Positions 1-41,720 of a stretch of DNA of 64,000 bases are shown here, piece after piece. This DNA comes from Methanobacteriota archaeon (GTDB taxonomy: Archaea > Thermoplasmatota > E2 > DHVEG-1): the NCBI GenBank assembly GCA_963769885.1, contig CAVYNH010000001.1:4071-68070 (forward strand). Reading direction: 5' to 3'. How positions within the stretch are numbered: position 1 is the first letter of the stretch; every line of letters starts with the position of its first letter. The position numbers and the translations under genes are program-made. The notes under the pieces are model-generated. The model saw only the letters and a list, made by a program, of their open reading frames with translations. It did no database searches and was not told where the DNA came from.

Positions 1-107
1 AATACAATATTTTTACCATTGTCGGAGGATTGATGTTAAATGCAAACCAACTCGATGAACTAATATTACATTTAAAAAATATTAAAAAAGAGGTCGATAG
101 CATATGA
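1..107 (+). CDS. small hypothetical protein, 3' fragment cut by the window edge
   Basis: The translation (..NIFTIVGGLMLNANQLDELILHLKNIKKEVDSI) equals the C-terminus of the 91-aa ORF 11202..11477 on the other palindrome arm. The stop TGA at 105-107 overlaps the next ATG (ATGA). Confidence 0.5.
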   Translation, partial: YNIFTIVGGLMLNANQLDELILHLKNIKKEVDSI

Positions 108-1405
108 AAGAAAAAGTAAAAAGATCAACCCAAGTGATGATCTATCCTGAAAAGAAAGTAAACAACGCAAGAATTACAACGATCAATTTAAACAATAAAA
201 CAATCAAAACACCCTGTTATATCCCTAAGATAAGAACATCAAAAGAACTTGACATAATTATTGATGAAAAGAAAATAAATGACTATTTCCAAGGAATATT
301 TTTTGATATATTAAATGTATCATCATTGAACAGAGAGAAAACAATATTCAATCCTAAACAAACACGTTTAATCCCAATGATTTCCTATGATTTTAAAACC
401 TTAAAAGGCATCCTCCCTGTTTTCATTGATCCAAACACGGAATATCTTTATCTAAACAACAAGCAAAAAAGAACGCAATATAAAAATCTCCCGTCACTCC
501 CACAAAAAATTTCTGATTTTTTAACCAAATCAACATATGCGAATTATACTAAGATGTGGCAACAACTGTATAACTCAGGAGATACTACTACAGTCATCAA
601 CTGGAATGTAAGAGAACAAAATAAATATCAACCTGATGCGATAGTACCATTCGTACCATTTATCGAGGGTGAAAACTCCCCTCTAATAGATATAGCAATT
701 GATGTAAATAAAAAATCCGCTTTCACTATAGCGGATACCTTTGGTCTTGAACCATCTTTCTATTTTAACCTCAATTATTCAGCATTACGGAATTTAGATC
801 AACTTAAAAAAATCACAGATTTCTTAATGGACGTAGACGGAGAATATGAGAACGTAAAAATCATTTTCATCAAAATAAAATACTTCCCTCTGAATGATAC
901 CGATGTAAGAAGAAACCTCGGAACATTTGCCAAGTCTATTCAGGAAGCGGCTGAATTTAACAATAAATTTACTTTCTTGATAGATGCGGATGCATATGCC
1001 ATACCATGTATATCCACTGGATTTGACGGTTTCATCGAACCATTAAATGGTTACATTAATGATTATGGCGGTAGCGGTAAATCTTCAAAATTCAGATCAT
1101 ATTATGACAGAAAACGAATGGAATTGGTAAAAGCAAATAAGATTAAAAATAAACCGTTAAAATGCGGTTGCCCCCGATGTTCAAAGATTAATGAAGTATA
1201 TGGTGGCGCATTTTTTAACAAGATAGACCCGCATCTATGGAGTGCATGGAGTAAGGAACATTTGTTCTACAGTAGATGCCAAGAAGTAAAAGAAGTCAGG
1301 GACGCAATAAATGACAACGGCATAGCCAGGATACAGGATAAATTCATCAACTCCTCCAAAAAAGATTTCATTGAAATTCTTGGTTACTACACTGATGGAG
1401 ATTAA
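104..1405 (+). CDS. tRNA-guanine transglycosylase (TGT) superfamily protein, DpdA-like
   Basis: 433-aa ORF. The C-terminal CxCxxC (KCGCPRC) is followed about 27 aa later by EHLFYSRCQEVKEVRDAI. This matches the TGT zinc site (CxCxxC...H) and the helix after it. GFDGFIEP resembles the G-x-D-x-FD catalytic strand. A DNA-modifying (DpdA-like) role is inferred from the mobile-element context only. Confidence 0.7.
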   Translation: MKEKVKRSTQVMIYPEKKVNNARITTINLNNKTIKTPCYIPKIRTSKELDIIIDEKKINDYFQGIFFDILNVSSLNREKTIFNPKQTRLIPMISYDFKTLKGILPVFIDPNTEYLYLNNKQKRTQYKNLPSLPQKISDFLTKSTYANYTKMWQQLYNSGDTTTVINWNVREQNKYQPDAIVPFVPFIEGENSPLIDIAIDVNKKSAFTIADTFGLEPSFYFNLNYSALRNLDQLKKITDFLMDVDGEYENVKIIFIKIKYFPLNDTDVRRNLGTFAKSIQEAAEFNNKFTFLIDADAYAIPCISTGFDGFIEPLNGYINDYGGSGKSSKFRSYYDRKRMELVKANKIKNKPLKCGCPRCSKINEVYGGAFFNKIDPHLWSAWSKEHLFYSRCQEVKEVRDAINDNGIARIQDKFINSSKKDFIEILGYYTDGD

Positions 1406-1602
1406 AACAGATTAAATTTTTTACCATCCCTATCGAAAAAACTACATAAGTTTTTTGGCGAAACATATGAGCTTAATGATAGGGATGGCAAGAACATCAA
1501 TGTCATTTGTTTTTAAAATAGTTTGCAAACCTAAAATACACAAAATATTTAAAAAATAAAAAATTACATACATTCAGAAGAATAGAGATAGAGGACATAT
1601 TT

Positions 1603-2112
1603 ATGTGTGAAAAAGAAATAAGACAATACAATTCAATTATTTCAATTTGGGAAAGATGGGATAAAGGATATTGGGACTCATTTCATTTTTATATTATTGT
1701 CATATCCTTATTATTCGCAGGCTATTCTCAAATAATAAATAAAATAAATATTGCAGCAGTAATAGTTTGTTTTACTGGTTTTATAATAAGTATTTTCTGG
1801 TTCTTTATTTTGCATAGAAAATATGCCCATATTCTTATAGCAGAAAATGAAGGAAGAAAATTAGAGACTAAAATATTCACAGATTGTAATGGTTGTTTTA
1901 CTTCAAATAAAAATTTTAAGAAAGGAACATATAACGAAATTGATGAAGCTTTAGGTTGTAGAAAATTCTTAACAAAAATAAGTTCTGGTTTAATTGTATC
2001 ATTTTTTGTACCATTAACATTTACCATAATCTGGTTAACATTAATGATTATAACAACAGTTCATTGGATAATTAAGGATGTCTGTCCTTTCATCATATCA
2101 GTTATAACATAA
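1603..2112 (+). CDS. small polytopic membrane protein (hypothetical)
   Basis: 169-aa ORF with about four hydrophobic segments. An identical copy lies at 9199..9708 (-). Confidence 0.6.
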   Translation: MCEKEIRQYNSIISIWERWDKGYWDSFHFYIIVISLLFAGYSQIINKINIAAVIVCFTGFIISIFWFFILHRKYAHILIAENEGRKLETKIFTDCNGCFTSNKNFKKGTYNEIDEALGCRKFLTKISSGLIVSFFVPLTFTIIWLTLMIITTVHWIIKDVCPFIISVIT

Positions 2113-2116
2113 CCAT

Positions 2117-2216
2117 CTAAATTTCCCACTACTGATTTCCCACTACAGTATTACACAGAACCCTGAACAGGGTTCTGTGTAACCGTGGTTTGGGCAGTTT
2201 AGACTGGGAAATCTAG
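2117..2216. repeat. two abutted, inverted transposon ends separated by 8 bp
   Basis: The sequence ..TTACACAGAACC (ends at 2162), CTGAACAG (2163-2170), GGTTCTGTGTAA.. (starts at 2171) is a perfect 15-bp-arm palindrome at 2151..2182. The arms extend imperfectly to about 46 bp and contain TTTCCCACTAC sub-repeats. Confidence 0.75.
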
Positions 2217-2305
2217 GTTGGTTTCTCCGAGAGTCGCTGATAAAAGGAAAATGATAAAACAAACAAGATGATGTAGATTTGCTTTCAAATTTAAAGGAGG
2301 TAAAT

Positions 2306-2587
2306 ATGGGTGTTGAAGCTTATAAAGAATGCAGAGGCTTGGTAGAATCCTATGTTTGTAATAGAGGAACGACTATACAACGTGCTATAAAAAACATAAA
2401 CACAAGACTGAAAAAAGCAAAATTAACCGATCAAGATATTGAAAAAATTCTTGCGGAAGTCAATAAAAATAATGTATCTGATTTTGAAAATTCAACTGCT
2501 TTCCCCAATCTTTTTCAAGAAAGAAAACAAAGATTTGAACTCATAGAGAAAGAACTACAACAATTATTGAATATACATCTAGCTTAG
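2306..2587 (+). CDS. hypothetical protein
   Basis: ATG at 2306 follows AGGAGG (2295-2300). The longer ORF-track start at 2279 lacks an RBS. No recognisable domain. Confidence 0.5.
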   Translation: MGVEAYKECRGLVESYVCNRGTTIQRAIKNINTRLKKAKLTDQDIEKILAEVNKNNVSDFENSTAFPNLFQERKQRFELIEKELQQLLNIHLA

Positions 2588-2633
2588 TTTTAGGTCCTAC
2601 CGGAATTGAAGAATACTATTTCCCAAAGTATAA

Positions 2634-2786
2634 GGGCCTGGTTCATAATTCGTTTCTCCTGTTGAACAAATCGTAAAGAATCTTGTGAGCTGCTGCTTTC
2701 CTGCTTCTTTTCTTCCAAATCACGCGCACTCTAGAATCAACAGTCTTTTAGACAATTTCTCCTGTTGGGAATTATGAACCAAGCCC
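2634..2786. mobile_element. 153-bp MITE (copy A)
   Basis: Ends are GGGCCTGGTTCATAATTCGTTTCTCCTGTTG and ..TTTCTCCTGTTGGGAATTATGAACCAAGCCC, giving 16-bp terminal inverted repeats GGC(C/T)TGGTTCATAATTC. It is flanked by the 9-bp direct repeat AAAGTATAA (2625-2633 and 2787-2795). A second family member lies at 62328..62480. Confidence 0.75.
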
Positions 2787-2948
2787 AAAGTATAAACGAA
2801 AGGATGGGAATTTTAGTTTTACAAATCCTTTTAACAAGCCGATGGATAAACAGTATTGGTTTCCCCGTATTGCGTCGTTCACCAAACTACGCTCAGTAGA
2901 AGACTTCTGATAAGTCAGGCTTTCTACCAGGGGAGACGGGAAAAAAAT

Positions 2949-3272
2949 ATGGTCGAAGAAACAACAGAGAAGAGAACAGCTGAAAAAGGAAGAACCGATG
3001 AAAACGTGATATATGTTGGAAAGAAACCCCCAATGAGCTATGTGCTTGCAATAGTAACACAGTTCAATAGTGGATCAGATGAAGTAATAATAAAAGCTAG
3101 AGGCAGAACGATTAGCACAGCAGTCGATGCTGCAGAAATAACCAGGAACCGGTTTGTCACAGACGTGAAAGTCAAAGACATAAAAATTAGTACTGAAAGT
3201 ATCACCAATGAGGAAGGGAGAACCTCGAATGTATCTTCAATGGAAATCTGCTTAACGAAAAAGAAAAAATAA
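2949..3272 (+). CDS. albA: chromatin protein Alba
   Basis: The sequence ..[50 protein letters not shown].. is typical Alba. The internal ATG at 2949 was chosen because the upstream part of the ORF looks non-coding. Confidence 0.85.
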
Positions 3273-3317
3273 AGAAGTAATTGAAAAATAAGAGAAGAAA
3301 AAAAAGAGGGATATGGA

Positions 3318-5639
3318 CTAATATTGTAGTCCTAATCTTTGGATTATTTTTTGTAGGATTGGGAACAGATTAGGATGATTCTCTACGAACCTTAGGAATG
3401 GTACGTGAGTATATGCTTTGTTTGTAGGCATAGTCACTGACAATGTCGACTCTGGACCTATTAAACCATTAACATCCTCAGCTCTTGCTTTGATAAAATA
3501 AGTCCCTCGACTACTCCAAGTGTGTGATACCGTTACATCTGTACCAGATGGACTAAAAGCAGTCGTATCAGAGGTATTATCACCCCACTCAATGATGTAA
3601 CGAACTTGATCTCCATCTGGATCTACTGCGTTGAATATATAGTTATACCCTATTCCTACTATTCCACTTGTTGGACCATTTATTGTTGGTGCATTTGGAG
3701 GATTTCCACCGCCACCGGTGAACTTTGCCACAAAAGCATCTCCACCGCCGTTGTAGATTCTGTCGTAGGCTCCTAGTGTCGTCGGAAAATCAGAAGAATA
3801 GGTTGCACCGGTGATGGAGGCTTCCCCATCATCAATCGCAATATCATGGCCATAATCATAATAGGTTCCGCCGAGGTAGGTACTGTAGATAAGGATGTTA
3901 CCACCAGGGGAAAGCTTCGACACAAAAACATCTCCACCGCCGTTGTAGGTGGTGTCGTAGGCTCCTAGTGTCGTCGGGAAATTAGAAGAATTGGTGCCAC
4001 CGGTGATGTAGGCGTTCCCACCAGCAACCGCAATACAATAGCCCCGATCAATATCAGTTCCGCCGAGGTATGTACTATAGTTAAGGGAGTTACCAGTACT
4101 GAGTAACTTTGTCACAAAAGCATCTCCACCGCCGTTGTAGGTGGTGTCGTAGGCTCCTAGTGTCGTCGGGAAATTAGAAGAATAGGTGTAACCGGTGATA
4201 TAGGCGTTCCCATCAGCAACTGCAATACCAAGGCCCTCATCATTAAGGGTTCCGCCGAGGTAGGTACTGTAGATAAGGGAGCTGCCAGTACGGGGAAACT
4301 TTGTCACAAAAACATCATACCCGCCGTTGTAGGTGGGGTCGTAGGCTCCTAGTGTCGGGAAATTAGAAGAATTGGTGCCACCGGTGATGTAGGCGTTCCC
4401 ATCAGCAACTGCAATACCATAGCCATAATCATAACCTATTCCGCCGAGGTATGTACTGTAGGCAAGGGCGTTGCCAGCAGGGCGAAACTGTGTCACAAAA
4501 GCATCACTATAACCGTTGTAGGTGGTGTCGTAGGCGCCGGGTGTTATCGGAAAATCAAAATCAGAAGAATAGGTTGCACCGGTGATGGAGGCGTTCCCAC
4601 CAGCAACTGCAATACCATAGCCATAATCAGAACTGGTTCCGCCGAGATAGGTACGATAGATAAGAATGCTACCATAAGGGGAAAGCTTAGTCACAAAAAC
4701 ATCACAATAACCGTTGTAGGTGGTGTCGTAGGCTCCTAGTGTCGTCGGAAAATCAGAAGACCAGGTGCCACCGGTGATGTAGGCGTTCCCATCATCAACC
4801 GCAATATCATGGCCCCGTTCATTATTGGTTCCGCCGAGGTAGGTACTGTAGATAAGGGCGTTACCAGCAAGGGGAAGCTTCGACACAAAAACATCATACT
4901 GGCCGTTGTAGGTTCTGTCGTAGGCTTGTGGTGTCGTCGGAAAATCAGGAGAATTGGTGTAACCGGTGATGTAGGCGTTCCCATCATCAACCGCAATACC
5001 AAGGCCCTCATCATAATAGGTTCCGCCGAGGTAGGTACTATACGCCAGCGTAGGGTCGATAACAAGTGGATACAACGGATTGTATTCATCCTCGATAGCA
5101 AAACCGAAACTATTTGGCTGTCTGGGTTCGTATCTTCCTATAATCCCTTGTTTTATGCCGTTGATTTCTTGGTATATCACCGGTGATTTCTCGGAAAATA
5201 GACCAAACCGGGTCTCTATCGCAAGGTCACCATCTGATGTTACCCTCATGTTATCAACACCATCATATCGAATAAGAATCGTATCTGGGTCTCCACCAGA
5301 ATAGACAATGAAATCGTATTTCAACGTGTTCTCAATGAAATGGTACTGTAAATCAATTCCAGGGTAGATACCCTTGTACACAACCTCTTGGTAATTCGGA
5401 ACATCGGTATACCACTTCTCAGGGTTATTTCCAATGAAATAGTTGTTATTGTTAGGAAGTCGACGCTCACCGGTAACGACTGCACTGGGGTTTGCGCCAA
5501 CAAACTCCGCGACCGTAGAAATCATCTCCATCTGTTGCGGTTCTCTTACTTGTATTCGTTCCATCGGGTTTTTGTTATCCTTCAAATCGGCACTCTTAGA
5601 ATCGTTTAATTCCCGGAAGAAGTACCGTTTCAGACGCAT
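3318..5639 (-). CDS. SBBP-type beta-propeller repeat protein with C-terminal PKD-like module (5'-truncated)
   Basis: About nine tandem units of YSTYLGG..D.G.GIAVD.GNAYITG.T.S.DFPTT.GAYD..YNG..DVFV.KL are followed by DPDGDQVRYIIEWGD...HTW..G.Y. There is no signal peptide. The first 8 codons lie in the unique palindrome spacer, so the 5' end appears to be lost. Confidence 0.8.
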   Translation of the reverse strand: MRLKRYFFRELNDSKSADLKDNKNPMERIQVREPQQMEMISTVAEFVGANPSAVVTGERRLPNNNNYFIGNNPEKWYTDVPNYQEVVYKGIYPGIDLQYHFIENTLKYDFIVYSGGDPDTILIRYDGVDNMRVTSDGDLAIETRFGLFSEKSPVIYQEINGIKQGIIGRYEPRQPNSFGFAIEDEYNPLYPLVIDPTLAYSTYLGGTYYDEGLGIAVDDGNAYITGYTNSPDFPTTPQAYDRTYNGQYDVFVSKLPLAGNALIYSTYLGGTNNERGHDIAVDDGNAYITGGTWSSDFPTTLGAYDTTYNGYCDVFVTKLSPYGSILIYRTYLGGTSSDYGYGIAVAGGNASITGATYSSDFDFPITPGAYDTTYNGYSDAFVTQFRPAGNALAYSTYLGGIGYDYGYGIAVADGNAYITGGTNSSNFPTLGAYDPTYNGGYDVFVTKFPRTGSSLIYSTYLGGTLNDEGLGIAVADGNAYITGYTYSSNFPTTLGAYDTTYNGGGDAFVTKLLSTGNSLNYSTYLGGTDIDRGYCIAVAGGNAYITGGTNSSNFPTTLGAYDTTYNGGGDVFVSKLSPGGNILIYSTYLGGTYYDYGHDIAIDDGEASITGATYSSDFPTTLGAYDRIYNGGGDAFVAKFTGGGGNPPNAPTINGPTSGIVGIGYNYIFNAVDPDGDQVRYIIEWGDNTSDTTAFSPSGTDVTVSHTWSSRGTYFIKARAEDVNGLIGPESTLSVTMPTNKAYTHVPFLRFVENHPNLFPILQKIIQRLGLQY

Positions 5640-5684
5640 GCCCCCGGGGCAACCGTCTATCTCTGCAAGAACAAAATCGTCTCA

Positions 5685-7993
5685 GTGTTCACCAGAGAAT
5701 TAAACGATTCTAAGAGTGCCGATTTGAAGGATAACAAAAACCCGATGGAACGAATACAAGTAAGAGAACCGCAACAGATGGAGATGATTTCTACGGTCGC
5801 GGAGTTTGTTGGCGCAAACCCCAGTGCAGTCGTTACCGGTGAGCGTCGACTTCCTAACAATAACAACTATTTCATTGGAAATAACCCTGAGAAGTGGTAT
5901 ACCGATGTTCCGAATTACCAAGAGGTTGTGTACAAGGGTATCTACCCTGGAATTGATTTACAGTACCATTTCATTGAGAACACGTTGAAATACGATTTCA
6001 TTGTCTATTCTGGTGGAGACCCAGATACGATTCTTATTCGATATGATGGTGTTGATAACATGAGGGTAACATCAGATGGTGACCTTGCGATAGAGACCCG
6101 GTTTGGTCTATTTTCCGAGAAATCACCGGTGATATACCAAGAAATCAACGGCATAAAACAAGGGATTATAGGAAGATACGAACCCAGACAGCCAAATAGT
6201 TTCGGTTTTGCTATCGAGGATGAATACAATCCGTTGTATCCACTTGTTATCGACCCTACGCTGGCGTATAGTACCTACCTCGGCGGAACCTATTATGATG
6301 AGGGCCTTGGTATTGCGGTTGATGATGGGAACGCCTACATCACCGGTTACACCAATTCTCCTGATTTTCCGACGACACCACAAGCCTACGACAGAACCTA
6401 CAACGGCCAGTATGATGTTTTTGTGTCGAAGCTTCCCCTTGCTGGTAACGCCCTTATCTACAGTACCTACCTCGGCGGAACCAATAATGAACGGGGCCAT
6501 GATATTGCGGTTGATGATGGGAACGCCTACATCACCGGTGGCACCTGGTCTTCTGATTTTCCGACGACACTAGGAGCCTACGACACCACCTACAACGGTT
6601 ATTGTGATGTTTTTGTGACTAAGCTTTCCCCTTATGGTAGCATTCTTATCTATAGTACCTATCTCGGCGGAACCAGTTCTGATTATGGCTATGGTATTGC
6701 AGTTGCTGGTGGGAACGCCTCCATCACCGGTGCAACCTATTCTTCTGATTTTGATTTTCCGATAACACCCGGCGCCTACGACACCACCTACAACGGTTAT
6801 AGTGATGCTTTTGTGACACAGTTTCGCCCTGCTGGCAACGCCCTTGCCTACAGTACATACCTCGGCGGAATAGGTTATGATTATGGCTATGGTATTGCAG
6901 TTGCTGATGGGAACGCCTACATCACCGGTGGCACCAATTCTTCTAATTTCCCGACACTAGGAGCCTACAACCCCACCTACAACGGCGGGTATGATGTTTT
7001 TGTGACAAAGTTTCCCCGGTACTGGCAGCTCCCTTATCTACAGTACCTACCTCGGCGGAACCCTTAATGATGAGGGCCTTGGTATTGCAGTTGCTGATGG
7101 GAACGCCTATATCACCGGTTACACCTATTCTTCTAATTTCCCGACGACACTAGGAGCCTACGACACCACCTACAACGGCGGTGGAGATGCTTTTGTGACA
7201 AAGTTACTCAGGACCTGGTAACTCCCTTAACTATAGTACATACCTCGGCGGAACTGATATTGATCGGGGCTATTGTATTGCGGTTGCTGGTGGGAACGCC
7301 TACATCACCGGTGGCACCAATTCTTCTAATTTCCCGACGACACTAGGAGCCTACGACACCACCTACAACGGCGGTGGAGATGTTTTTGTGTCGAAGCTTT
7401 CCCCTGGTGGTAACATCCTTATCTACAGTACCTACCTCGGCGGAACCTATTATGATTATGGCCATGATATTGCGATTGATGATGGGGAAGCCTCCATCAC
7501 CGGTGCAACCTATTCTTCTGATTTTCCGACGACACTAGGAGCCTACGACAGAATCTACAACGGCGGTGGAGATGCTTTTGTGGCAAAGTTCACCGGTGGC
7601 GGTGGAAATCCTCCAAATGCACCAACAATAAATGGTCCAACAAGTGGAATAGTAGGAATAGGGTATAACTATATATTCAACGCAGTAGATCCAGATGGAG
7701 ATCAAGTTCGTTACATCATTGAGTGGGGTGATAATACCTCTGATACGACTGCTTTTAGTCCATCTGGTACAGATGTAACGGTATCACACACTTGGAGTAG
7801 TCGAGGGACTTATTTTATCAAAGCAAGAGCTGAGGATGTTAATGGTTTAATAGGTCCAGAGTCGACATTGTCAGTGACTATGCCTACAAACAAAGCATAT
7901 ACTCACTTACCATTCCTAAGGTTCGTAGAGAATCATCCTAATCTGTTCCCAATCCTACAAAAAATAATCCAAAGATTAGGACTACAATATTAG
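5685..7993 (+). pseudogene. frameshifted copy of the SBBP repeat protein
   Basis: It is split into ORFs 5685..7067 and 7388..7993 plus an unlisted middle piece. The cause is +1 indels at about 7019 and 7213 relative to 3318..5639. Confidence 0.75.
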
Positions 7994-8038
7994 TCCATAT
8001 CCCTCTTTTTTTTCTTCTCTTATTTTTCAATTACTTCT

Positions 8039-8362
8039 TTATTTTTTCTTTTTCGTTAAGCAGATTTCCATTGAAGATACATTCGAGGTTCTCCCTTCCT
8101 CATTGGTGATACTTTCAGTACTAATTTTTATGTCTTTGACTTTCACGTCTGTGACAAACCGGTTCCTGGTTATTTCTGCAGCATCGACTGCTGTGCTAAT
8201 CGTTCTGCCTCTAGCTTTTATTATTACTTCATCTGATCCACTATTGAACTGTGTTACTATTGCAAGCACATAGCTCATTGGGGGTTTCTTTCCAACATAT
8301 ATCACGTTTTCATCGGTTCTTCCTTTTTCAGCTGTTCTCTTCTCTGTTGTTTCTTCGACCAT
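8039..8362 (-). CDS. albA: chromatin protein Alba (duplicate copy)
   Basis: Identical translation to 2949..3272. Confidence 0.8.
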
Positions 8363-8524
8363 ATTTTTTTCCCGTCTCCCCTGGTAGAAAGCCTGACTTA
8401 TCAGAAGTCTTCTACTGAGCGTAGTTTGGTGAACGACGCAATACGGGGAAACCAATACTGTTTATCCATCGGCTTGTTAAAAGGATTTGTAAAACTAAAA
8501 TTCCCATCCTTTCGTTTATACTTT

Positions 8525-8677
8525 GGGCTTGGTTCATAATTCCCAACAGGAGAAATTGTCTAAAAGACTGTTGATTCTAGAGTGCGCGTGATTTGGAAGA
8601 AAAGAAGCAGGAAAGCAGCAGCTCACAAGATTCTTTACGATTTGTTCAACAGGAGAAACGAATTATGAACCAGGCCC
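8525..8677. mobile_element. 153-bp MITE (mirror copy of copy A)
   Basis: Reverse complement of 2634..2786 within the palindrome. Confidence 0.7.
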
Positions 8678-8723
8678 TTATACTTTGGGAAATAGTATTC
8701 TTCAATTCCGGTAGGACCTAAAA

Positions 8724-9005
8724 CTAAGCTAGATGTATATTCAATAATTGTTGTAGTTCTTTCTCTATGAGTTCAAATCTTTGTTTTCTTTCTTGAAAAA
8801 GATTGGGGAAAGCAGTTGAATTTTCAAAATCAGATACATTATTTTTATTGACTTCCGCAAGAATTTTTTCAATATCTTGATCGGTTAATTTTGCTTTTTT
8901 CAGTCTTGTGTTTATGTTTTTTATAGCACGTTGTATAGTCGTTCCTCTATTACAAACATAGGATTCTACCAAGCCTCTGCATTCTTTATAAGCTTCAACA
9001 CCCAT
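8724..9005 (-). CDS. hypothetical protein (duplicate of 2306..2587)
   Basis: Identical translation on the other arm. Confidence 0.5.
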   Translation of the reverse strand: MGVEAYKECRGLVESYVCNRGTTIQRAIKNINTRLKKAKLTDQDIEKILAEVNKNNVSDFENSTAFPNLFQERKQRFELIEKELQQLLNIHLA

Positions 9006-9198
9006 ATTTACCTCCTTTAAATTTGAAAGCAAATCTACATCATCTTGTTTGTTTTATCATTTTCCTTTTATCAGCGACTCTCGGAGAAACCAACCTAGAT
9101 TTCCCAGTCTAAACTGCCCAAACCACGGTTACACAGAACCCTGTTCAGGGTTCTGTGTAATACTGTAGTGGGAAATCAGTAGTGGGAAATTTAGATGG

Positions 9199-9708
9199 TT
9201 ATGTTATAACTGATATGATGAAAGGACAGACATCCTTAATTATCCAATGAACTGTTGTTATAATCATTAATGTTAACCAGATTATGGTAAATGTTAATGG
9301 TACAAAAAATGATACAATTAAACCAGAACTTATTTTTGTTAAGAATTTTCTACAACCTAAAGCTTCATCAATTTCGTTATATGTTCCTTTCTTAAAATTT
9401 TTATTTGAAGTAAAACAACCATTACAATCTGTGAATATTTTAGTCTCTAATTTTCTTCCTTCATTTTCTGCTATAAGAATATGGGCATATTTTCTATGCA
9501 AAATAAAGAACCAGAAAATACTTATTATAAAACCAGTAAAACAAACTATTACTGCTGCAATATTTATTTTATTTATTATTTGAGAATAGCCTGCGAATAA
9601 TAAGGATATGACAATAATATAAAAATGAAATGAGTCCCAATATCCTTTATCCCATCTTTCCCAAATTGAAATAATTGAATTGTATTGTCTTATTTCTTTT
9701 TCACACAT
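9199..9708 (-). CDS. small polytopic membrane protein (duplicate of 1603..2112)
   Basis: Identical translation on the other arm. It lies inside the TIR-bounded element 9149..14542. Confidence 0.6.
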   Translation of the reverse strand: MCEKEIRQYNSIISIWERWDKGYWDSFHFYIIVISLLFAGYSQIINKINIAAVIVCFTGFIISIFWFFILHRKYAHILIAENEGRKLETKIFTDCNGCFTSNKNFKKGTYNEIDEALGCRKFLTKISSGLIVSFFVPLTFTIIWLTLMIITTVHWIIKDVCPFIISVIT

Positions 9709-9905
9709 AAATATGTCCTCTATCTCTATTCTTCTGAATGTATGTAATTTTTTATTTTTTAAATATTTTGTGTATTTTAGGTTTGCAAACTATTTTAAAA
9801 ACAAATGACATTGATGTTCTTGCCATCCCTATCATTAAGCTCATATGTTTCGCCAAAAAACTTATGTAGTTTTTTCGATAGGGATGGTAAAAAATTTAAT
9901 CTGTT

Positions 9906-11205
9906 TTAATCTCCATCAGTGTAGTAACCAAGAATTTCAATGAAATCTTTTTTGGAGGAGTTGATGAATTTATCCTGTATCCTGGCTATGCCGTTGTCAT
10001 TTATTGCGTCCCTGACTTCTTTTACTTCTTGGCATCTACTGTAGAACAAATGTTCCTTACTCCATGCACTCCATAGATGCGGGTCTATCTTGTTAAAAAA
10101 TGCGCCACCATATACTTCATTAATCTTTGAACATCGGGGCAACCGCATTTTAACGGTTTATTTTTAATCTTATTTGCTTTTACCAATTCCATTCGTTTTC
10201 TGTCATAATATGATCTGAATTTTGAAGATTTACCGCTACCGCCATAATCATTAATGTAACCATTTAATGGTTCGATGAAACCGTCAAATCCAGTGGATAT
10301 ACATGGTATGGCATATGCATCCGCATCTATCAAGAAAGTAAATTTATTGTTAAATTCAGCCGCTTCCTGAATAGACTTGGAAATGTTCCGAGGTTTCTTC
10401 TTACATCGGTATCATTCAGAGGGAAGTATTTTATTTTGATGAAAATGATTTTTACGTTCTCATATTCTCCGTCTACGTCCATTAAGAAATCTGTGATTTT
10501 TTTAAGTTGATCTAAATTCCGTAATGCTGAATAATTGAGGTTAAAATAGAAAGATGGTTCAAGACCAAAGGTATCCGCTATAGTGAAAGCGGATTTTTTA
10601 TTTACATCAATTGCTATATCTATTAGAGGGGAGTTTTCACCCTCGATAAATGGTACGAATGGTACTATTGCATCAGGTTGATATTTATTTTGTTCTCTTA
10701 CATTCCAGTTGATGACTGTAGTAGTATCTCCTGAGTTATACAGTTGTTGCCACATCTTAGTATAATTCGCATATGTTGATTTGGTTAAAAAATCAGAAAT
10801 TTTTTGTGGGAGTGACGGCAGATTTTTATATTGCGTTCTTTTTTGCTTGTTGTTTAGATAAACATATTCCGTGTTTGGATCAATGAAAACAGGGAGGATG
10901 CCTTTTAAGGTTTTAAAATCATAGGAAATCATTGGGATTAAACGTGTTTGTTTAGGATTGAATATTGTTTTCTCTCTGTTCAATGATGATACATTTAATA
11001 TATCAAAAAATATTCCTTGGAAATAGTCATTTATTTTCTTTTCATCAATAATTATGTCAAGTTCTTTTGATGTTCTTATCTTAGGGATATAACAGGGTGT
11101 TTTGATTGTTTTATTGTTTAAATTGATCGTTGTAATTCTTGCGTTGTTTACTTTCTTTTCAGGATAGATCATCACTTGGGTTGATCTTTTTACTTTTTCT
11201 TTCAT
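9906..11205 (-). pseudogene. frameshifted copy of the TGT/DpdA-like gene
   Basis: It is broken into ORFs 10330..11205, 10085..10333 and 9906..10148. The cause is 1-nt deletions near 10381 (ttgcc to ttcc) and 10136 (a C5 run becomes C4) relative to 104..1405. Confidence 0.75.
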
Positions 11206-11477
11206 ATGCTATCGACCTCTTTTTTAATATTTTTTAAATGTAATATTAGTTCATCGAGTTGGTTTGCATTTAACATCAATCCTCCGACAATGGTAAAAAT
11301 ATTGTATTCATCTCTTGTTTTTTCTTGGATATACACAAATTTACCAAAAGGGTTTTCGATCAATTGAAAGTTATAATATTTTTCACCTATTTTTACATCT
11401 TTTATTAAAGTTGGATGGGCTACTTTTCCATTAGGATAATAGAGGAAATTTCTTTGACTAAACTGTCGCCTATACAA
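11202..11477 (-). CDS. hypothetical protein (TTG start)
   Basis: 91-aa ORF whose stop overlaps the start of the TGT-like gene. Its frame opens 24 nt before the stop of the upstream 77-aa ORF, so the two could be one frameshifted gene. Confidence 0.45.
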   Translation of the reverse strand: MYRRQFSQRNFLYYPNGKVAHPTLIKDVKIGEKYYNFQLIENPFGKFVYIQEKTRDEYNIFTIVGGLMLNANQLDELILHLKNIKKEVDSI

Positions 11478-11500
11478 CTCTCTGATCGCTGTAAGGTAAT

Positions 11501-11692
11501 CTAAAGTTGAGATGCGGTTCTGCGATCAATCCCTGCAACATCAGATACTTGAGGTAAACTAATTCCTTGTGGATTATCTTTAACAACTTTTAATATGATT
11601 GAACAAGCAAATCTTTTTCTATCTTCGGGAGACATTTTTTTTAATTCCTCTTTTGAAAATCCGATTTGACTTCTATTTATTGCGTCATCCAT
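11501..11692 (-). CDS. small HTH DNA-binding protein (putative)
   Basis: MDDAINRSQIGFSKEELKKMSPEDRKRFACSIILKVVKDNPQGISLPQVSDVAGIDRRTASQL has a helix-turn-helix-like C-terminal half. An internal ATG was chosen as start. Confidence 0.45.
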   Translation of the reverse strand: MDDAINRSQIGFSKEELKKMSPEDRKRFACSIILKVVKDNPQGISLPQVSDVAGIDRRTASQL

Positions 11693-11904
11693 TGTTTTTC
11701 TCCTTGTAATTTTATATACAACATTAAGATGCACATACCTTGTGCATAGTTATGTTGTACAGTTGATGTTGCACATAAACGGTTATTATATATATAAAGA
11801 TAACTGATAGCTTTATATACTGACAATGTATTATAAAACTTGGCGAAATATATGGGCAACAAAATAGATATTAAAGAAATGGTTAACGCAGAAAAGCTAG
11901 AGGC

Positions 11905-13010
11905 ATGACACTTTTAGAACAAGGAATAGAACCAACCGAGATTAATCCGCATACGTGGATAGTGCCAAGTCAGACAGGAAATGGAACATATCAAGTTGAT
12001 GTCCAGATGCGGTATTGGCATTGTACATGTCCAGATTTTGAACTAAAAGTATTGTAAACACATCAATGCGGTTAAGATATGGAAGAACCTGAAAGAGAAA
12101 TTTGAACAAATACATCTCAAAGTGAAACAGAAAATTACGTTAACAGATATTGATGTTGATTGCTGTAAGTTTTGTCATTCAACAGAAGTGACAAAATATG
12201 GGATGAAAAATAGTAAACAAGTCTATTTCTGTAAGACCTGTAATCGAAGATTTGTCAATAATGTTGACTTCGAGAATATGAAATATAACCCTAAGATAAT
12301 CGCATTAACGCTTGATCTGTATTTCAAAGGAATAAGTCTCAGGAAAATAAGCCAACATCTAAAACAATTCTATGAACTGAATATAAGCCATAAATCAGTT
12401 TACAACTGGATAGAAAAATATGTAGGGATAATGAATGAATACGTCAATGAAATACAACCTGATATTGGGGAAGTATGGCATACTGACGAAATGATGATTA
12501 AAATAGATGGCTCATGGAGACCTCTGGAATGTCATGGACGAACGTACACGGTTTCAACTCGCTTCTGTGGTATCAAAAGAACGATATGTTAAAGATGCAC
12601 GTATGGTATTTCAGAAGGCAAAAAAGAACTGCGGTGGACGCAAGCCGAAGTTCATGGTTACCGATGGTCTACCCGCATATAGGGATGCGGTGAACAAGGA
12701 GTTTAAAACTAATACTGATGAAACAGAACACCTATGGAATGTGGGGTTACAGCACCATCCAAATAACAACCACATTGAAAGATTACATGGGACAATACGG
12801 GATCGTGAAAAAACATTTAGAGGGTTAAAGATAGAAAGTACCCCTATTATTGATGGGAACAGGATTTACTACAATTTCATAAAACCACATGAAAATCTTG
12901 ATGGTAAAACTCCGAGTGAGGAATCGGGAATAATCATTGAAGGAAATAATAAATGGCTTACTCTTATGAAAAAATCAATTCAGTACCAAAAGGCTAAAAA
13001 TCAGAATTGA
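11905..13010 (+). pseudogene. IS6-like DDE transposase with SWIM and zinc-ribbon N-terminus, at least two frame breaks
   Basis: The DDE signature is VWHTDEMMIKIDG, MVTDGLPAYRDAV and NNHIERLHGTIRDR. The frame shifts near 12515 (ORFs 12122..12592 and 12507..13010 overlap). It shifts again near 12050, where the SWIM-like motif W-H-C-T-C-P..CKH is split between frames. Confidence 0.65.
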
Positions 13011-13041
13011 AAAGTTATATAATTCAAATGGAGATTTAAAA

Positions 13042-14484
13042 ATGGAAAACATGCAAATAAAAACCGATACTATTTACTGCGGAGATTGCCTTGATGTATT
13101 GAGGCGATTTCCAGAAGGATTTGTAAATTTAATTTATCTTGATCCACCATTTTCAAGTGGCAGGATTTATAATATAGTGTTTGGCACTAATAGCGAAAAA
13201 AAAGCCTTTGATGATCGATGGAAAGGTGGTATTCATCATTATATTGAATATATGAGGGAAAGACTCGAACTCTGCCATCGTGTTTTGGACAGTAAAGGGT
13301 CGATTTATTTACATTGCGATAGTCATGCAAGTCATTATCTCAAAATAGTGATGGATGATATTTTTGGTTATAATAATTTTAAGAATGAAATAATTTGGAA
13401 AAGAAAAGATGCTCAAAGTTTCACCAATAAATATGGAGCTATGCATGATACGATTTTATTTTATACAAAATCAAATGAGTACACGTTTAACAAAGCATTA
13501 GAAGAGTACATTCCACTTAGCGAAGAAACCGCAGATACTTGGTATAAATATGAAGAAATTGCATCGAAAAATATTATTAATCGTCTTGGGAAAAAAATTG
13601 AAAAAGGACATGTAAGACGATACAATAAAGGTGATATAAGCGCACCTGGGGATAGGCAAGGTACGGCAGCGCATTATAAATGGAACGGAAAATATCCACC
13701 AAAGGGGAGACATTGGGAATATACGGTTGAGGTGATGGGGAGATTGGAAAGAGAAAAACGTCTTGCTTATTCTAAGAATGGAAGGGTTTATGAAAAGCGA
13801 TATTTAGATGAAACAAAGGGGACACCTCCTCAAGACATTTGGACTGACATTTCTATGTTGCGTGGAATGGGTAAACATAGTGAAAAAAGTGAATGGATGG
13901 AATACCCAACTCAAAAACCAAAACGTTTACTTGAAAGAATAATACGGATTTCCTCAAATGAAAATGACATTGTACTTGATCCTTTCTGTGGCTGTGGTAC
14001 GACTATCGTTGCAGCACATTATTTGAGGAGAAAATGGATTGGTATTGATATTTCACCTACTGCATGTAATGTCATAAAAAATCGTATGGGAAATGTAAAA
14101 AAAATGGGATTGTTTGTCGTGAAAAACATTCCTATAATTGGACTCCCAAAGACAGAAGATGATCTTAGAAAATTGCATCCTTTCGAGTTTGAAAACTGGG
14201 TATGTGATGTTCTTTTCGCTATTCAGACGAAGAAAGCAAAAGACATGGGTATTGATGGATATACTATTGATGGAACAGTTCTCCAAGCAAAACAAATGGA
14301 TAAAGTAGGAAGACCCATAGTAGATAATTTTGAGGCATCAATGAAGCGAGCTAAAACCAATAAAGGCATAGTTATTGCTTTTAGTTTTACTAAAGATGCT
14401 TTTGAAGAGGTTGCAAGAATAAAAAGCGAGAATATAGATATTACATTAAGATCAGTAAAAGAATTATTAGAAATGGGTTTCTAA
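13042..14484 (+). CDS. beta-class N6A/N4C DNA methyltransferase fused to a C-terminal Mrr-like restriction endonuclease domain
   Basis: Motif IV is IYLDPPF near the N-terminus and motif I is VLDPFCGCGTTIVAA near residue 310. The C-terminal roughly 110 aa reads ..FENWVCDVL..GIDGY..LQAKQ.., a D..(E/Q)xK nuclease-like pattern. Confidence 0.75.
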   Translation: MENMQIKTDTIYCGDCLDVLRRFPEGFVNLIYLDPPFSSGRIYNIVFGTNSEKKAFDDRWKGGIHHYIEYMRERLELCHRVLDSKGSIYLHCDSHASHYLKIVMDDIFGYNNFKNEIIWKRKDAQSFTNKYGAMHDTILFYTKSNEYTFNKALEEYIPLSEETADTWYKYEEIASKNIINRLGKKIEKGHVRRYNKGDISAPGDRQGTAAHYKWNGKYPPKGRHWEYTVEVMGRLEREKRLAYSKNGRVYEKRYLDETKGTPPQDIWTDISMLRGMGKHSEKSEWMEYPTQKPKRLLERIIRISSNENDIVLDPFCGCGTTIVAAHYLRRKWIGIDISPTACNVIKNRMGNVKKMGLFVVKNIPIIGLPKTEDDLRKLHPFEFENWVCDVLFAIQTKKAKDMGIDGYTIDGTVLQAKQMDKVGRPIVDNFEASMKRAKTNKGIVIAFSFTKDAFEEVARIKSENIDITLRSVKELLEMGF

Positions 14485-14621
14485 TCTGATACCACTACAG
14501 ATTTTCCACTACTAAATTTCCACTACAGTATTACACAGCACCCTGTTCAGATAGGTTTATATAGAAGTGTCCATATGCTGGGAATGCTTTTAACCTACTT
14601 ATAAAGGAGGCATAGAACAGT

Positions 14622-16277
14622 ATGATGGCTGGAGGACAGACACCCATAATCATCCTTAAAGAAGGCACGAAACGCGAAAAAGGCAAAGGCGCCCAACTCA
14701 ACAACATCATGGCAGCCCGCGCAATCTCCGACGCCGTGAAATCCACGCTCGGACCCAAAGGCATGGACAAGATGCTCGTCGACTCCATGGGCGACGTCGT
14801 CATCACCAACGACGGCGCCACCATCCTCAAAGAAATCGACGTCGAACACCCCGCCGCAAAAATGATCGTCGAAGTCGCCAAAGCCCAAGACGAACAATGC
14901 GGCGACGGCACCACCACCGCCGTGATCCTCACCGGAGAACTCCTTCGCAACGCCGGCGAGCTCATCGAACAGAACATCCATCCCACCGTCATCACGGGCG
15001 GATACCAGAAGGCGGCCATAAAGGCGGTCGAAATCCTCAACAAGATGGCGATCCCGATCAAGCCCAACGACAAAAAAACGCTGAAGAACATCGCCATGAC
15101 CTCCATGGCCAGCAAGGGAGCCAGCTCCGCAAAAGCAATCCTCTCCGACGTCGTCGTCGACGCGGTCACCAGCGTCGCCGAGAAAATCGATGGACGCACC
15201 GAAGTCGACATGGACAACATCCAGATCCAGAAGAAACAGGGCGGTAGCATCAACGATACCAAGATCATCAAGGGCATCATCCTCGACAAGGAACGCGTCC
15301 ACGAAGGCATGCCCAAGCACGTCCACAACGCCAAGATCGCCTTGGTCAACGCCGCTTTAGAGATTAAGAAGACCGAGGTCGACGCCCGCATCCAGATCCA
15401 GGACCCCAGCCAACTCCAGGCCTTCCTCGATGAGGAAGAGACCATGCTGAAGAAGATGGTTGAAAAAATCAAGAAGAGCGGGGCCAACGTCCTCGTCTGC
15501 CAGAAGGGCATCGATGACATCGCCCAGCACTTCCTCGCCAAAGATGGCATCTACGCGGTCCGGCGCGCCAAGAAATCCGACATGGACAAGCTCGCCAAGG
15601 CCACCGGCGCAAAGATCGTCGCCAACCTCGACAACCTCAGCGTCAAGGACCTCGGACAGGCTGGCGCCGTCGAAGAACAGAAGATCGGCGACGACCGCAT
15701 GACCTTTGTTGTCGACTGCAAGAACCCCAAGGCCGTCAGCATCCTCATCCGCGGCAGCACCGAACACATCGTCGACGAGCTTGACCGCGGCATGCACGAC
15801 GCCCTCTTCGTCGTCAAAGTCGCCCTCGAGGACGGGAAGATGACCGCCGGCGGCGGCAGCGCAGCCACCGAGATCGCCATGCAGCTGCGCGAGTACGCCA
15901 CCACTGTCGGCGGCCGCGAGCAGATGGCGATCGAGGCGTTCGCCAACGCGGTCGAAGTCGTCCCCAAGACCCTGGCGGAGAACGCGGGTCTTGACCCCAT
16001 CGATATGATGATCAACGTCCGCCGCGCCCACAAGAAGGGCAACAAGTACGCTGGCATCGACGTCTTCAACGGCAAGATCACCGACATGATTGACAACAAC
16101 GTCGTCGAGCCGCTGCGCGTCAGCGTCCAGGAAGTCACGGCATCCACCGAAGCCGCCAACATGATCCTGCGCATCGACGACATCATCGCCTCCAAGAGCG
16201 GTGGCCCAGCGCCCGGCGGCCCCGGCGGCATGCCAGGCGGCCCCGGCGGTATGGGCGGTGACATGGACGAGTACTAA
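14622..16277 (+). CDS. ths: thermosome subunit (group II chaperonin)
   Basis: 551 aa with GDGTTTAVILTGELL and a C-terminal GGM-type tail. AAGGAGG lies 12 nt upstream. Confidence 0.95.
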   Translation: MMAGGQTPIIILKEGTKREKGKGAQLNNIMAARAISDAVKSTLGPKGMDKMLVDSMGDVVITNDGATILKEIDVEHPAAKMIVEVAKAQDEQCGDGTTTAVILTGELLRNAGELIEQNIHPTVITGGYQKAAIKAVEILNKMAIPIKPNDKKTLKNIAMTSMASKGASSAKAILSDVVVDAVTSVAEKIDGRTEVDMDNIQIQKKQGGSINDTKIIKGIILDKERVHEGMPKHVHNAKIALVNAALEIKKTEVDARIQIQDPSQLQAFLDEEETMLKKMVEKIKKSGANVLVCQKGIDDIAQHFLAKDGIYAVRRAKKSDMDKLAKATGAKIVANLDNLSVKDLGQAGAVEEQKIGDDRMTFVVDCKNPKAVSILIRGSTEHIVDELDRGMHDALFVVKVALEDGKMTAGGGSAATEIAMQLREYATTVGGREQMAIEAFANAVEVVPKTLAENAGLDPIDMMINVRRAHKKGNKYAGIDVFNGKITDMIDNNVVEPLRVSVQEVTASTEAANMILRIDDIIASKSGGPAPGGPGGMPGGPGGMGGDMDEY

Positions 16278-35443: not shown

Positions 35444-35625
35444 GTTGATTGTTCTCATACCTTCCCGATGAGTCAACTATTTTATCTGAATGGTCAAGTT
35501 ACTTGTTAATTATTTTACTAATTGTTTCCCTTGATAAACACCGTTTTCAGTTGGTTCCGTGTTGCTGGTGCGTCTAAGGTTTTATTAAGGACGCGATGAT
35601 TTTTATTCGTAATAGAGGAAGGAAA

Positions 35626-38103: not shown

Positions 38104-38228
38104 ACGACGTGAGAGGGGATTCCCTCCTCTTTCTTTTTCTTTTTGTCTTTCACCTGGAATTTGGGAAGAGCTTTTCGGACGGTGAGGCAAATCTAATAAC
38201 CTGATGCTTTATTACGAGACTTCGCCGC

Positions 38229-38301
38229 GGGCCTGTGGGGTAGCTTGGTATCCTTGTGGCTTCGGGAGCCATCGACATGCGTTCAAATCGCATCAGGCCC
38301 A
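38229..38301 (+). tRNA. tRNA-Pro (anticodon CGG)
   Basis: Manual cloverleaf follows. Acceptor stem is GGGCCTG/CAGGCCC. D-loop is AGCTTGGTA with A14, G18G19 and A21. Anticodon stem is GTGGC/GCCAT with loop TTCGGGA. T-arm is ATGCG-TTCAAAT-CGCAT. The discriminator is A and no CCA is encoded. Confidence 0.9.
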
Positions 38302-38356
38302 TTATCTTCTACAGGAGAAAAGTCTGGTAACAGACCCAAATTTGGCGTTCTGTTGG
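38278..38356 (+). repeat. tRNA-Pro 3' end plus downstream sequence (repeat copy 1)
   Basis: ..TCGCATCAGGCCCAT..CAGGAGAAAAGTC..GGCGTTCTGTTGG is shared with copies at 40352-40428 and 42132-42181. Confidence 0.8.
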
Positions 38357-38525
38357 TTTTTTCCTTGCCTCGCTTTCCTGCTGATAGTTGTGTTGGTTTT
38401 TTGTATATAATTAAAGGGCTTGATTCATAATTCCCTGATGGAGGAAAAGAAGAAGGGATATCGCATCCTAATCGACATGAAATATGATAAATTGAAAAAA
38501 GGAAAAAAAGAGGAGAGGTAGGTAA

Positions 38526-39914: not shown

Positions 39915-40266
39915 CGTTTTCCTCCTTCCCCAAAACTCAGGTTATGAAAAGAAAATCTCTCGAGGGTATTTATATTTTTTTGTCTGAAATCTTATGAAAT
40001 AGAAATGGTAAAAAAACCGATGTCGCGCTTCATTTGGCGTTCTCATGAATTTCCTTTCTTTTAATAAAGATACTTTTGGAACCTTGTTTAAAACTCTATT
40101 TACCCACAATTGATGCTGGGACGCCGTGGTCATTTTAGATTTTGCGATCTATTCCTGCTTTTTCTATCCTATTCTTGATTGACGTATTTCCTAGGTTGTT
40201 TGGGCTTTATGGGAGCCTTTCTAAAAATATGTGTGAGTTAAGTATGGGAAAACATGAGAAAAAAAA

Positions 40267-41030: not shown

Positions 41031-41059
41031 AAATAATGTCAATTAATGTCTTCTAAGCG

Positions 41060-41655: not shown

Positions 41656-41720
41656 TCACATTCAATTTTTTTTTTATCATCGATTAGCATAAAACATGAG
41701 TCAAAACCGTGTCACTGCTT

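Follow-up and report, generated by a model that had tools for sequence, protein, structure and literature searches.

The stretch of DNA analysed here, which we call the window, comprises 64,000 nt of contig CAVYNH010000001.1 (positions 4,071 to 68,070 of the forward strand) from the archaeal assembly GCA_963769885.1. Close to its start lies an intact open reading frame (ORF) of 433 aa with an ATG start (104..1405, forward strand), whose product resembles the tRNA-guanine transglycosylases (TGTs). We refer to it as the TGT-like gene. In its chromosomal context it follows a smaller partner gene that overlaps its start codon, and a transposase gene and a gene for a fused methyltransferase and nuclease stand nearby. 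We tentatively read the TGT-like gene and its partner as a putative two-component system acting on the bases of nucleic acids.

The GC content was 0.30 in window 1-2000 compared to 0.59 (58-60%) from ~14.6 kb onward. The high-GC part encodes the thermosome, GrpE and DnaK as well as Trp/Tyr- and Asp/Lys/Asn-type aminoacyl-tRNA synthetases and topoisomerase VI B, and is archaeal chromosome. Its thermosome is 86-87% identical to that of uncultured Thermoplasmatales/Thermoplasmatota metagenome-assembled genomes (MAGs; SM1-50 and LFW-68_2), which show the same thermosome-GrpE-DnaK order as the window. An initial annotation, made from the window alone, had described the ORF as a stand-alone, DpdA-like gene on AT-rich mobile DNA that might insert preQ0-derived bases into DNA. 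The AT-rich foreign DNA is borne out by the difference in GC content to the host, and the ORF carries, as described there, the zinc site CxCxxC...H, which is followed by EHLFYSRCQEVKEVRDAI with the helix EHLFY...VKEVRDAI.

Assembly of the locus

Window 1-11308 is a near-perfect palindrome with the arms 1-5621 and 5688-11308 and a centre at ~5608-5688. The arms differ by 7 substitutions and 4 single-base indels. We compared them with L122 (6146 bp), an independent assembly from another run that is 100% identical to window 1-2663. In L122 the gene order is that of arm 2, namely thermosome start, methyltransferase-Mrr, transposase, partner, TGT-like gene and 8xMP, and all genes are intact (transposase 388 aa, partner 163 aa, TGT-like protein 433 aa). 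Furthermore, in two runs with a ~98%-identical strain the contigs track arm 2 to position 5608 and then continue into unrelated sequence, which was found nowhere in the window. Since L122 joins the genes as in arm 2 with the sequence of arm 1, and since the strain contigs diverge at the centre, the palindrome is most likely a fold-back chimera of the long-read assembly.

A real inverted duplication with one decaying copy was also considered. We rejected it on the ratio of indels to substitutions, on the full agreement of arm 1 with an independently assembled contig and on the divergence of the natural contigs exactly at the centre. There is only one TGT-like gene, whose true sequence is that of the copy at 104..1405 in arm 1 and whose true chromosomal place is arm 2 (9906..11205, reverse strand). 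In arm 2 two 1-nt deletions, near positions 10381 and 10140, split the gene into three ORFs. We rejected the reading of the frameshifted genes as pseudogenes, as the same genes are intact in L122, and for the same reason the breaks in the partner and transposase genes (window 11202-13010) are assembly errors. The 773-aa SBBP ORF (3318-5639, reverse strand) probably has a chimeric N-terminus.

Family and fold of the TGT-like protein

The Pfam TGT model (PF01702) matched the protein at its C-terminus only, with E=2e-3 and 17.7 bits, which is under the cut-off of 26.3. For the NCBIfam model tgt_general we obtained E=2.6e-4 and 20 bits, under the cut-off of 47.6 (TIGR00449/TIGR00432). Single-sequence searches of PADLOC, PHROGs and the PDB (phmmer) gave no match. 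Close relatives are rare, with 7 among 5.8 billion proteins. A profile search of 1.84 billion cluster representatives yielded 123 relatives at E<1e-3, nearly all of them 420-450 aa in length and matched end to end, and a 103-sequence alignment drawn from these relatives is the basis of all family counts given below. A word-indexed homologue search with the 103-sequence profile added one extra protein only, and a metagenome scan with a 10-sequence alignment found 4 loci. Pattern scans of IMG/VR and of the GTDB species representatives found no relative, though the patterns are specific to the close subfamily and provide weak evidence for absence. tblastn against 50,697 GenBank phage records gave no match at E<=10. 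We also found no ArcTGT gene in 80 archaeal loci.

AlphaFold2 with the 103-sequence alignment produced a model with a predicted local distance difference test (pLDDT) score of 91.8 and a predicted template modelling (pTM) score of 0.92; a model from 6 sequences reached a pLDDT of 50 and was discarded. The order of strands and helices in the accepted model fits a (beta/alpha)8 barrel with an N-terminal antiparallel sheet and a C-terminal zinc subdomain. A Foldseek search with this model returned Pyrococcus horikoshii ArcTGT (1iq8) first, with E=3.4e-11 and a template modelling (TM) score of 0.63 on the query, followed by ~170 entries of Zymomonas mobilis TGT with E ~1e-9 and TM up to 0.70 on the target. 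The profile comparisons pointed in the same direction: against the PDB, the 103-sequence profile matched ArcTGT 1iq8 with E=1.4e-13 and bacterial TGT with ~1e-4, in three collinear segments. With hhalign the family aligned to a 7-sequence bacterial Tgt alignment over 350 columns with a probability of 92.9%. The 7-sequence alignment was needed for this, as the single Escherichia coli Tgt sequence aligned in the zinc region only. Among the 103 members the weak NCBIfam matches (E<0.01) were to TgtA in 14 cases, to tgt_general in 7 and to ArcS in 2, and the Pfam TGT model matched 4 of them at E<0.01. The match to TGTs noted in the initial annotation is thus upheld by the family profile (E=1.4e-13) and by Foldseek (3e-11 to 1e-9 against ArcTGT and TGT). 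Profiles and model together identify the protein as a genuine member of the TGT superfamily from the archaeal TgtA side, with ArcTGT/TgtA as its nearest known relatives.

The zinc-binding subdomain (C354, C356, C359 ... H386; 1163..1261, forward strand) is conserved in 71-90 of the 103 sequences and aligns with the C279/C281/C284/H307 region of ArcTGT. The protein stops past this subdomain, at residue 433, and has no C1, C2 or PUA domain, in line with the initial annotation, which had noted that the PUA and C-terminal domains of ArcTGT are missing. Normalised to the 577-aa ArcTGT target the TM score drops to 0.49, and Pfam shows no PUA or TGT_C match.

The label 'DpdA-like' did not hold. The DpdA models of NCBIfam and PADLOC matched neither the protein nor any of its 103 relatives, and a 7-sequence alignment of 9g-type DpdA1 gave a probability of 0.4% against the family in hhalign. 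In a Foldseek search of BFVD the best viral structure match (E=5e-5, TM 0.48) was weaker than ArcTGT. The phiST protein M4SLA5, which is probably the DpdA3 protein, was found there with E=0.12 and TM 0.38. DpdA4, known from archaeal viruses, corresponds to Pfam PF20314 (DUF6610) and DpdA3 is defined by homology to proteins of Cellulophaga phage phiST and of Campylobacter phages (PMC10516641). Pfam searches gave no PF20314 match, either to the protein (E<=10) or to the 103 relatives (E<=0.01). In these comparisons the TGT-like protein groups with neither bona fide ArcTGT nor DpdA and forms a separate, remodelled family. The family, its partner, the remodelled catalytic set and the transposon association appear undescribed, the fold and the superfamily being already known. 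We found no curated model in Pfam, NCBIfam or PADLOC and no mention in the DpdA and TGT literature that we searched.

The active site

Three aspartates are invariant in TGTs and DpdAs and serve as general acid/base, in base recognition and as nucleophile (Gedara et al., PMC10164549). We mapped these residues by local and global hhalign alignments and by residue counting in E. coli Tgt, in which D264 is the second Asp of GIDMFD. Only the first of the three aspartates is kept. D109 aligns with E. coli D89, Z. mobilis D102 and DpdA D95, and the position holds D in 96 and E in 5 of the 103 sequences. It opens the D-P-x-x-E signature of the family (D109-P-N-T-E113; codons 428..442, forward strand), with P at position 110 in 94 sequences and E or D at position 113 in 83 and 14 sequences, respectively.

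The other two aspartates are not conserved in the family. The base-recognition Asp (E. coli D143, Z. mobilis D156, DpdA D130) aligns with V184, where the family has V, T, S or C, within a conserved P182-P-x-P185 (PPxP) motif. The nucleophile Asp (E. coli D264, Z. mobilis D280, DpdA D256) aligns with I311. At this position we observed S in 51, I in 15, V in 14 and C in 8 of the 103 sequences. In the surrounding segment D308-G-F-I311-E312-P313 (codons 1025..1042, forward strand) E312 is the only acid near the nucleophile position. Position 312 is E in 50, T in 22 and D in 11 sequences and hence acidic in 61 of the 103. E312, D109 and R391 are invariant in the 25 closest relatives, and for E312 the invariance is limited to this subfamily.

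Several residues are near-invariant and specific to the family, namely P110, E113, K257, N202, D308 and R/K at position 384. Lys257 (codon 872..874, forward strand; K in 93 and R in 8 of the 103 sequences) lies at the end of the predicted strand beta6, and its inferred place is about that of the base-binding GGL backbone of TGT. As judged by these alignments, the acid and the zinc subdomain have been retained in the family, the residue that recognises the guanine edge has been lost, and no Asp is present family-wide at the nucleophile position.

The partner gene

In arm 2 the partner gene (11205..11749, reverse strand) overlaps the start codon of the TGT-like gene. It contains one frameshift in the window and is intact, with 163 aa, in L122. 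Its hidden Markov model (HMM) matches at 11749-11504 and 11525-11205, and tblastn agrees. The 3' end is also present in arm 1 (1..104, forward strand), as the first letter of the window falls within this copy of the gene, and tblastn places residues 158-191 of ORF191 at window 3-104. In L003 the partner is a 191-aa ORF that overlaps the start of the TGT-like gene.

We sampled 13 contexts from the side of the TGT-like gene. In 12 of them the partner HMM found a partner of 160-190 aa directly upstream, mostly overlapping the start codon (window/L122, L003, L087, L088, L090, L091, L120, L121 and L123-L126), and the TGT-like gene can hence not be called stand-alone, as the initial annotation had it. 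The partners are still homologous (E=6e-9) where their TGT-like proteins share just 20% identity. The partner family comprises 32 clusters, which are annotated as hypothetical only.

The N-terminal half of the partner shows weak winged-helix matches (HTH_11 at 8.9e-5; the RPA32 winged helix, Z-alpha and ArsR at E=0.007-0.1). For the C-terminal half, PurA (PF04845) was matched by 3 of 6 partners with a best E of 0.067, and a 31-sequence partner profile matched four Pur-alpha entries at E=0.09-0.56. A motif like that of the PUR repeat, IG.KYY.F..IEN.FG.F.YIQEK, is visible in the partner alignment. The partner would consist of an N-terminal winged helix and a C-terminal domain that is possibly PUR-like, the PUR part being a lead only.

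Mobility and gene neighbourhood

The transposase gene (11905..13010, forward strand; Pfam DDE_Tnp_IS240) is oriented divergently from the pair and encodes an IS6/IS240-type DDE transposase with a SWIM zinc finger. Its reading frame is broken into three ORFs in the window and uninterrupted in L122. The 3.2-kb block of transposase, partner and TGT-like gene recurs with 88-91% nucleotide identity in L003-L006, which include an unrelated 52.8-kb contig. The similarity to L003 ends at the 3' end of the transposase gene and at window 1535, ~130 nt past the stop of the TGT-like gene. The L003-L006 contigs are packed with small ORFs of no assigned family and carry another methyltransferase and a BglII-like nuclease.

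We also encountered the triad in three further, more diverged contexts. In L127/L128 the protein identities were 77/52/51% for transposase, partner and TGT-like protein, and SIR2 and reverse-transcriptase genes adjoin. In L129 they were 39/46/33%, the TGT-like gene has 526 aa, and genes for EcoRII-C, a PF01555 methyltransferase and MazE adjoin. The L129 island (L129 4401-12059, compared with window 9906-16277) also lies directly upstream of thermosome-GrpE-DnaK-DnaJ genes, with a thermosome 51% identical to that of the window. This shared location may reflect an insertion-site preference, or coincidence. In L125 and L126 an IS5-type transposase follows downstream of the pair.

An 18-nt inverted repeat (TTGGCGAAAYATATGRGC) brackets exactly the partner and the TGT-like gene. 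One arm (TTGGCGAAACATATGAGC; 1455..1472, forward strand; fold-back copy 9839-9856, reverse strand) lies ~50 nt past the stop of the TGT-like gene, and the other (11840..11857, forward strand) lies between the partner gene and the transposase start. The repeat is conserved in L003 (9348-9365 and 11351-11368), and 0.05 matches per window would be expected by chance. It may mark the boundary of a cassette, serve as a regulatory palindrome or be left over from a transposon end. We searched the block ends for terminal inverted repeats of the 3.2-kb unit and found none.

The methyltransferase-nuclease gene to which the initial annotation linked the TGT-like gene is present as a PF01555 N6/N4 DNA methyltransferase fused to an Mrr_cat nuclease (13042..14484, forward strand; Pfam E=7.7e-50 and 2.3e-8), but the restriction-modification module is interchangeable between loci. 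In four cases a PF01555 methyltransferase adjoins the unit, and the accompanying nuclease differs between them: Mrr_cat in the window (13042-14484), BglII in L003 (6696-8196), EcoRII-C in L129 (6129-8231) and a PLD/NgoFVII-like nuclease in L126 (4623-6637). The fusion gene is a variable neighbour outside the conserved unit. Other neighbours include a GAPS4-type PDDEXK gene (L088) and Mrr_N with a helicase (L121). Overall the pair is mobile, as had been proposed from the window alone: it travels as cargo with an IS6-type, elsewhere an IS5-type, transposase and usually stands beside restriction-modification or other defence genes.

Discrepancies near GTAC sites

Between window 5688-14783 and arm 1/L122 we counted 29 differences in 18 clusters. 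Nine of the 18 clusters lie <=5 nt from a GTAC, compared to 4.6% of positions expected (P=3e-8). No other tetramer is nearly as enriched at the discrepancies as GTAC, and two GGTACTCC sites show multi-base deletions. The pattern looks like modification-linked basecalling error of long reads in an unpolished repeat copy. It would imply a GTAC-specific DNA modification, written by the adjacent PF01555 methyltransferase-Mrr protein or by something else; the methyltransferase would be the simplest candidate, and the TGT-like pair a possible alternative. The host part is apparently free of errors of this type, to judge from its long and intact ORFs and from only 1 difference across 25 low-coverage contig pieces of the same strain. 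Among the 8 contig pieces listed, this comparison included 3 GTAC sites.

Relation to known TGT-fold systems

The TGT-like protein shares with ArcTGT an N-terminal beta-sheet with a 'TP' motif, the (beta/alpha)8 barrel, an Asp after strand beta3, a G-x-D motif at beta8 and the CxCxxC...H zinc subdomain with the helix that follows it. However, the identity is only 12-14% and the tRNA-binding domains C1, C2 and PUA are lacking, and the base-recognition and nucleophile aspartates of ArcTGT are not conserved in the TGT-like family. The family is also mobile and rare and has a dedicated partner, whereas ArcTGT is universal in archaea. Bacterial Tgt has the same zinc site and the same general acid/base Asp, but helical insertions at residues 120-173 of the TGT-like protein replace the beta-hairpin insert of TGT.

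As in DpdA, a TGT-superfamily barrel without PUA is found on mobile or defence DNA. The bacterial bDpdA also requires a second protein, DpdB (PMC10164549). The partner described here is, unlike DpdB, not a ParB-like ATPase but resembles winged helix-turn-helix (wHTH) and possibly PUR proteins. None of folE, queC, queD, queE, a ParB-like DpdB or dpd-type genes were present in the ~15 loci examined.

In the type IV cyclic-oligonucleotide-based antiphage signalling system (CBASS), the TGT-family enzyme Cap10 is remodelled and binds a partner protein that carries a 7-deazaguanine conjugate (bioRxiv 10.1101/2025.04.06.647259). The likeness lies in Cap10's TGT fold with a remodelled surface and active site, its obligatory protein partner and its place in a conflict system. 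Cap10 has no zinc site, whereas the TGT-like family keeps it. No genes for Cap9 (QueC-like), a CD-NTase or an effector were found in any locus, and PADLOC gave no match to Cap10. The N-terminal domain of ArcS and QTRT2 are precedents for a TGT barrel that outlived the loss of its catalytic aspartates and took other roles. ArcS differs from the TGT-like protein in having C1, C2 and PUA domains and a PC-x3-KPY motif, and QTRT2 is a paralogous subunit of the TGT heterodimer. Neither of them is mobile or paired with a wHTH protein, unlike the TGT-like family.

Interpretation

With a probability of about 0.4 we favour the reading that the TGT-like gene and its partner form a putative mobile two-component system of archaea for the exchange or excision of nucleic-acid bases. 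The TGT-like enzyme would be the catalytic subunit, co-transcribed with the partner. The partner would bind and perhaps locally open the nucleic acid, most likely double-stranded DNA, and present a flipped-out base to the barrel pocket. The N-glycosidic bond would then be broken with Asp109 as the acid and Glu312 or Glu113 (or Lys257) as the nucleophile, and the base would either be exchanged, the modification marking or protecting the DNA of the element, or simply be removed. With the guanine-recognition residue gone, the substrate base could be one other than guanine or preQ0, and the winged helix together with the DNA-directed neighbours would make DNA the likelier substrate.

There are several points that weigh against this reading. 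As two of the three invariant aspartates are not conserved, the protein may no longer carry out canonical double-displacement base exchange and might not be a catalyst at all. The assignment of the pocket residues relies on profile alignment and on the secondary structure of the model rather than on 3-D superposition. The preference for DNA over RNA is drawn solely from the neighbourhood and the predicted wHTH domain, and the matches of the partner's C-terminal half to Pur-alpha are below significance. Several members (L090, L120) are surrounded by housekeeping genes and lack a nearby transposase or defence gene, and for the close homologue P0005 (L001/L002) the partner HMM finds no partner.

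In its boldest form the proposal would make the pair a new machine that writes or erases DNA bases, with moved catalytic residues (Asp109, Glu113/Glu312 and Lys257), a changed base specificity and a wHTH/PUR-like guide subunit that opens the duplex. It would place a non-methyl and possibly new modification at a defined motif on archaeal mobile elements, and the GTAC-linked long-read errors could be its footprint. We consider this version rather improbable.

The function suggested by the initial annotation, in which a DpdA analogue replaces guanine in DNA by preQ0 from the host or by a derivative and would thereby shield the element from restriction, is a special case of the two-component reading and not the one we favour. 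In general, archaeal hosts synthesise preQ0 for their archaeosine, the gene is mobile and adjoins restriction-modification systems, and the enzyme has the TGT fold, the zinc site and the conserved general acid/base Asp, with E312 next to the nucleophile position invariant in the subfamily of the window. The lack of any match to a DpdA model or relative counts against it, although the DpdA subfamilies are themselves extremely divergent (PMC10516641). In the pocket, the Asp that reads the Watson-Crick edge of guanine or 7-deazaguanine is replaced by PPxP and the nucleophile Asp is not conserved. The ~15 loci contained no preQ0, DpdB or dpd-type genes and neither the 50,697 phage records nor IMG/VR yielded a match, and we regard this function as unlikely.

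The changes in the active site can also be read differently. With the base-exchange nucleophile lost and a near-invariant Lys gained, the pair could be a defence, abortive-infection or addiction module, in which a base-removing effector or toxin acts on invading or modified DNA, or on tRNA or rRNA, and leaves abasic sites. Lys257 might then serve as a Schiff-base nucleophile and the wHTH partner as sensor, antitoxin or autoregulator. A small HTH gene that overlaps a larger enzyme gene, on mobile DNA and in neighbourhoods like those of defence islands, would fit such a module. However, we know of no TGT-fold glycosylase or toxin, PADLOC gave no match and some copies stand among housekeeping genes. 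Antitoxins usually evolve faster, whereas the conservation of this partner matches that of the enzyme. On the other side, DNA glycosylases have by now been recognised as defence effectors (bioRxiv 10.1101/2025.10.29.685425), and we hold such a module to be possible but doubtful.

The co-divergence of transposase, partner and TGT-like gene as a triad in four lineages would be expected if the pair were an accessory module of the IS6-like transposon, concerned with target-site choice or DNA remodelling. The 18-nt inverted repeat that brackets the pair beside the transposase start and the two islands directly upstream of the thermosome gene in distant archaea are further points in favour of this. 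Yet most members examined have no adjacent IS6 transposase (L087, L088, L090, L091, L120, L121 and L123), two loci have an unrelated IS5-type transposase and a unit transposon with terminal inverted repeats could not be recognised, which makes an accessory role very unlikely.

We give slightly less credence still to an RNA enzyme, that is, a diverged protein of the ArcTGT/ArcS type that targets tRNA or some other RNA and whose RNA-binding module would be the partner in place of PUA. The nearest relatives in sequence and structure are ArcTGT/TgtA and, weakly, ArcS, and PUR domains bind RNA as well as single-stranded DNA. Such a function is at odds with the rare, patchy and mobile distribution (7 close homologues in 5.8 billion proteins and none by the GTDB pattern scans), the loss of the guanine-recognition Asp, the winged helix of the partner and the DNA-directed neighbours. 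Finally, a Cap10-like modifier that conjugates a nucleobase to a protein, possibly its own partner, has the precedent of Cap10 and could draw on the obligatory partner and remodelled active site seen here too, but with the zinc site kept here and lost in Cap10, no Cap9, CD-NTase or effector genes and nothing from PADLOC, it is hardly credible.

Other features of the window

A gene for an 8xMP-family membrane protein (1603..2112, forward strand; Pfam PF24838, E=5.5e-10) lies 3' of the pair in the low-GC island and falls outside the block common to the window and L003. A gene for the chromatin protein Alba with an N-terminal extension is found at 2856-3272 (forward strand) and 8039-8455 (reverse strand). 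It is located in the low-GC region (~38% GC) and separates the cassette from the gene of the SBBP/PKD surface protein, and in the related MAGs we did not find an Alba gene beside the thermosome. The SBBP gene contains 192-nt repeats at 3786-5048.

A second stretch of lower GC content (43-45%) at window 38000-44500 starts just past a tRNA-Pro(CGG) gene (38229-38301). It encodes DUF11 and DUF4394 proteins, contains a 145-nt direct repeat (40259-40403 and 42037-42181, 89% identical) and possibly represents a further integrated element. Genes for two large C25-peptidase/PKD surface proteins lie at 35596-38103 and 46638-51200, and the larger gene carries five 297-nt tandem repeats (48836-50320). 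An ORF of 1197 aa without a Pfam match (21708-25301, reverse strand) lies in a region of strong GC-skew reversal.

Implications

To our knowledge, TGT-fold enzymes are the only known route for swapping whole bases in nucleic acids. In tRNA this yields queuosine and archaeosine, and in the DNA of phages and bacteria 7-deazaguanines. The family described here adds a further, so far unannotated branch of this fold, with what appears to be a rebuilt active site and a nucleic-acid-binding partner, which has spread on transposons among uncultured archaea. Both families, of which the TGT-like one comprises ~120 clusters at 50% identity, are currently labelled 'hypothetical', and the alignments could seed models for them. 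Through the TGT-like family a substrate or a reaction new to the TGT fold could come to light, and possibly a new archaeal DNA mark or defence principle.

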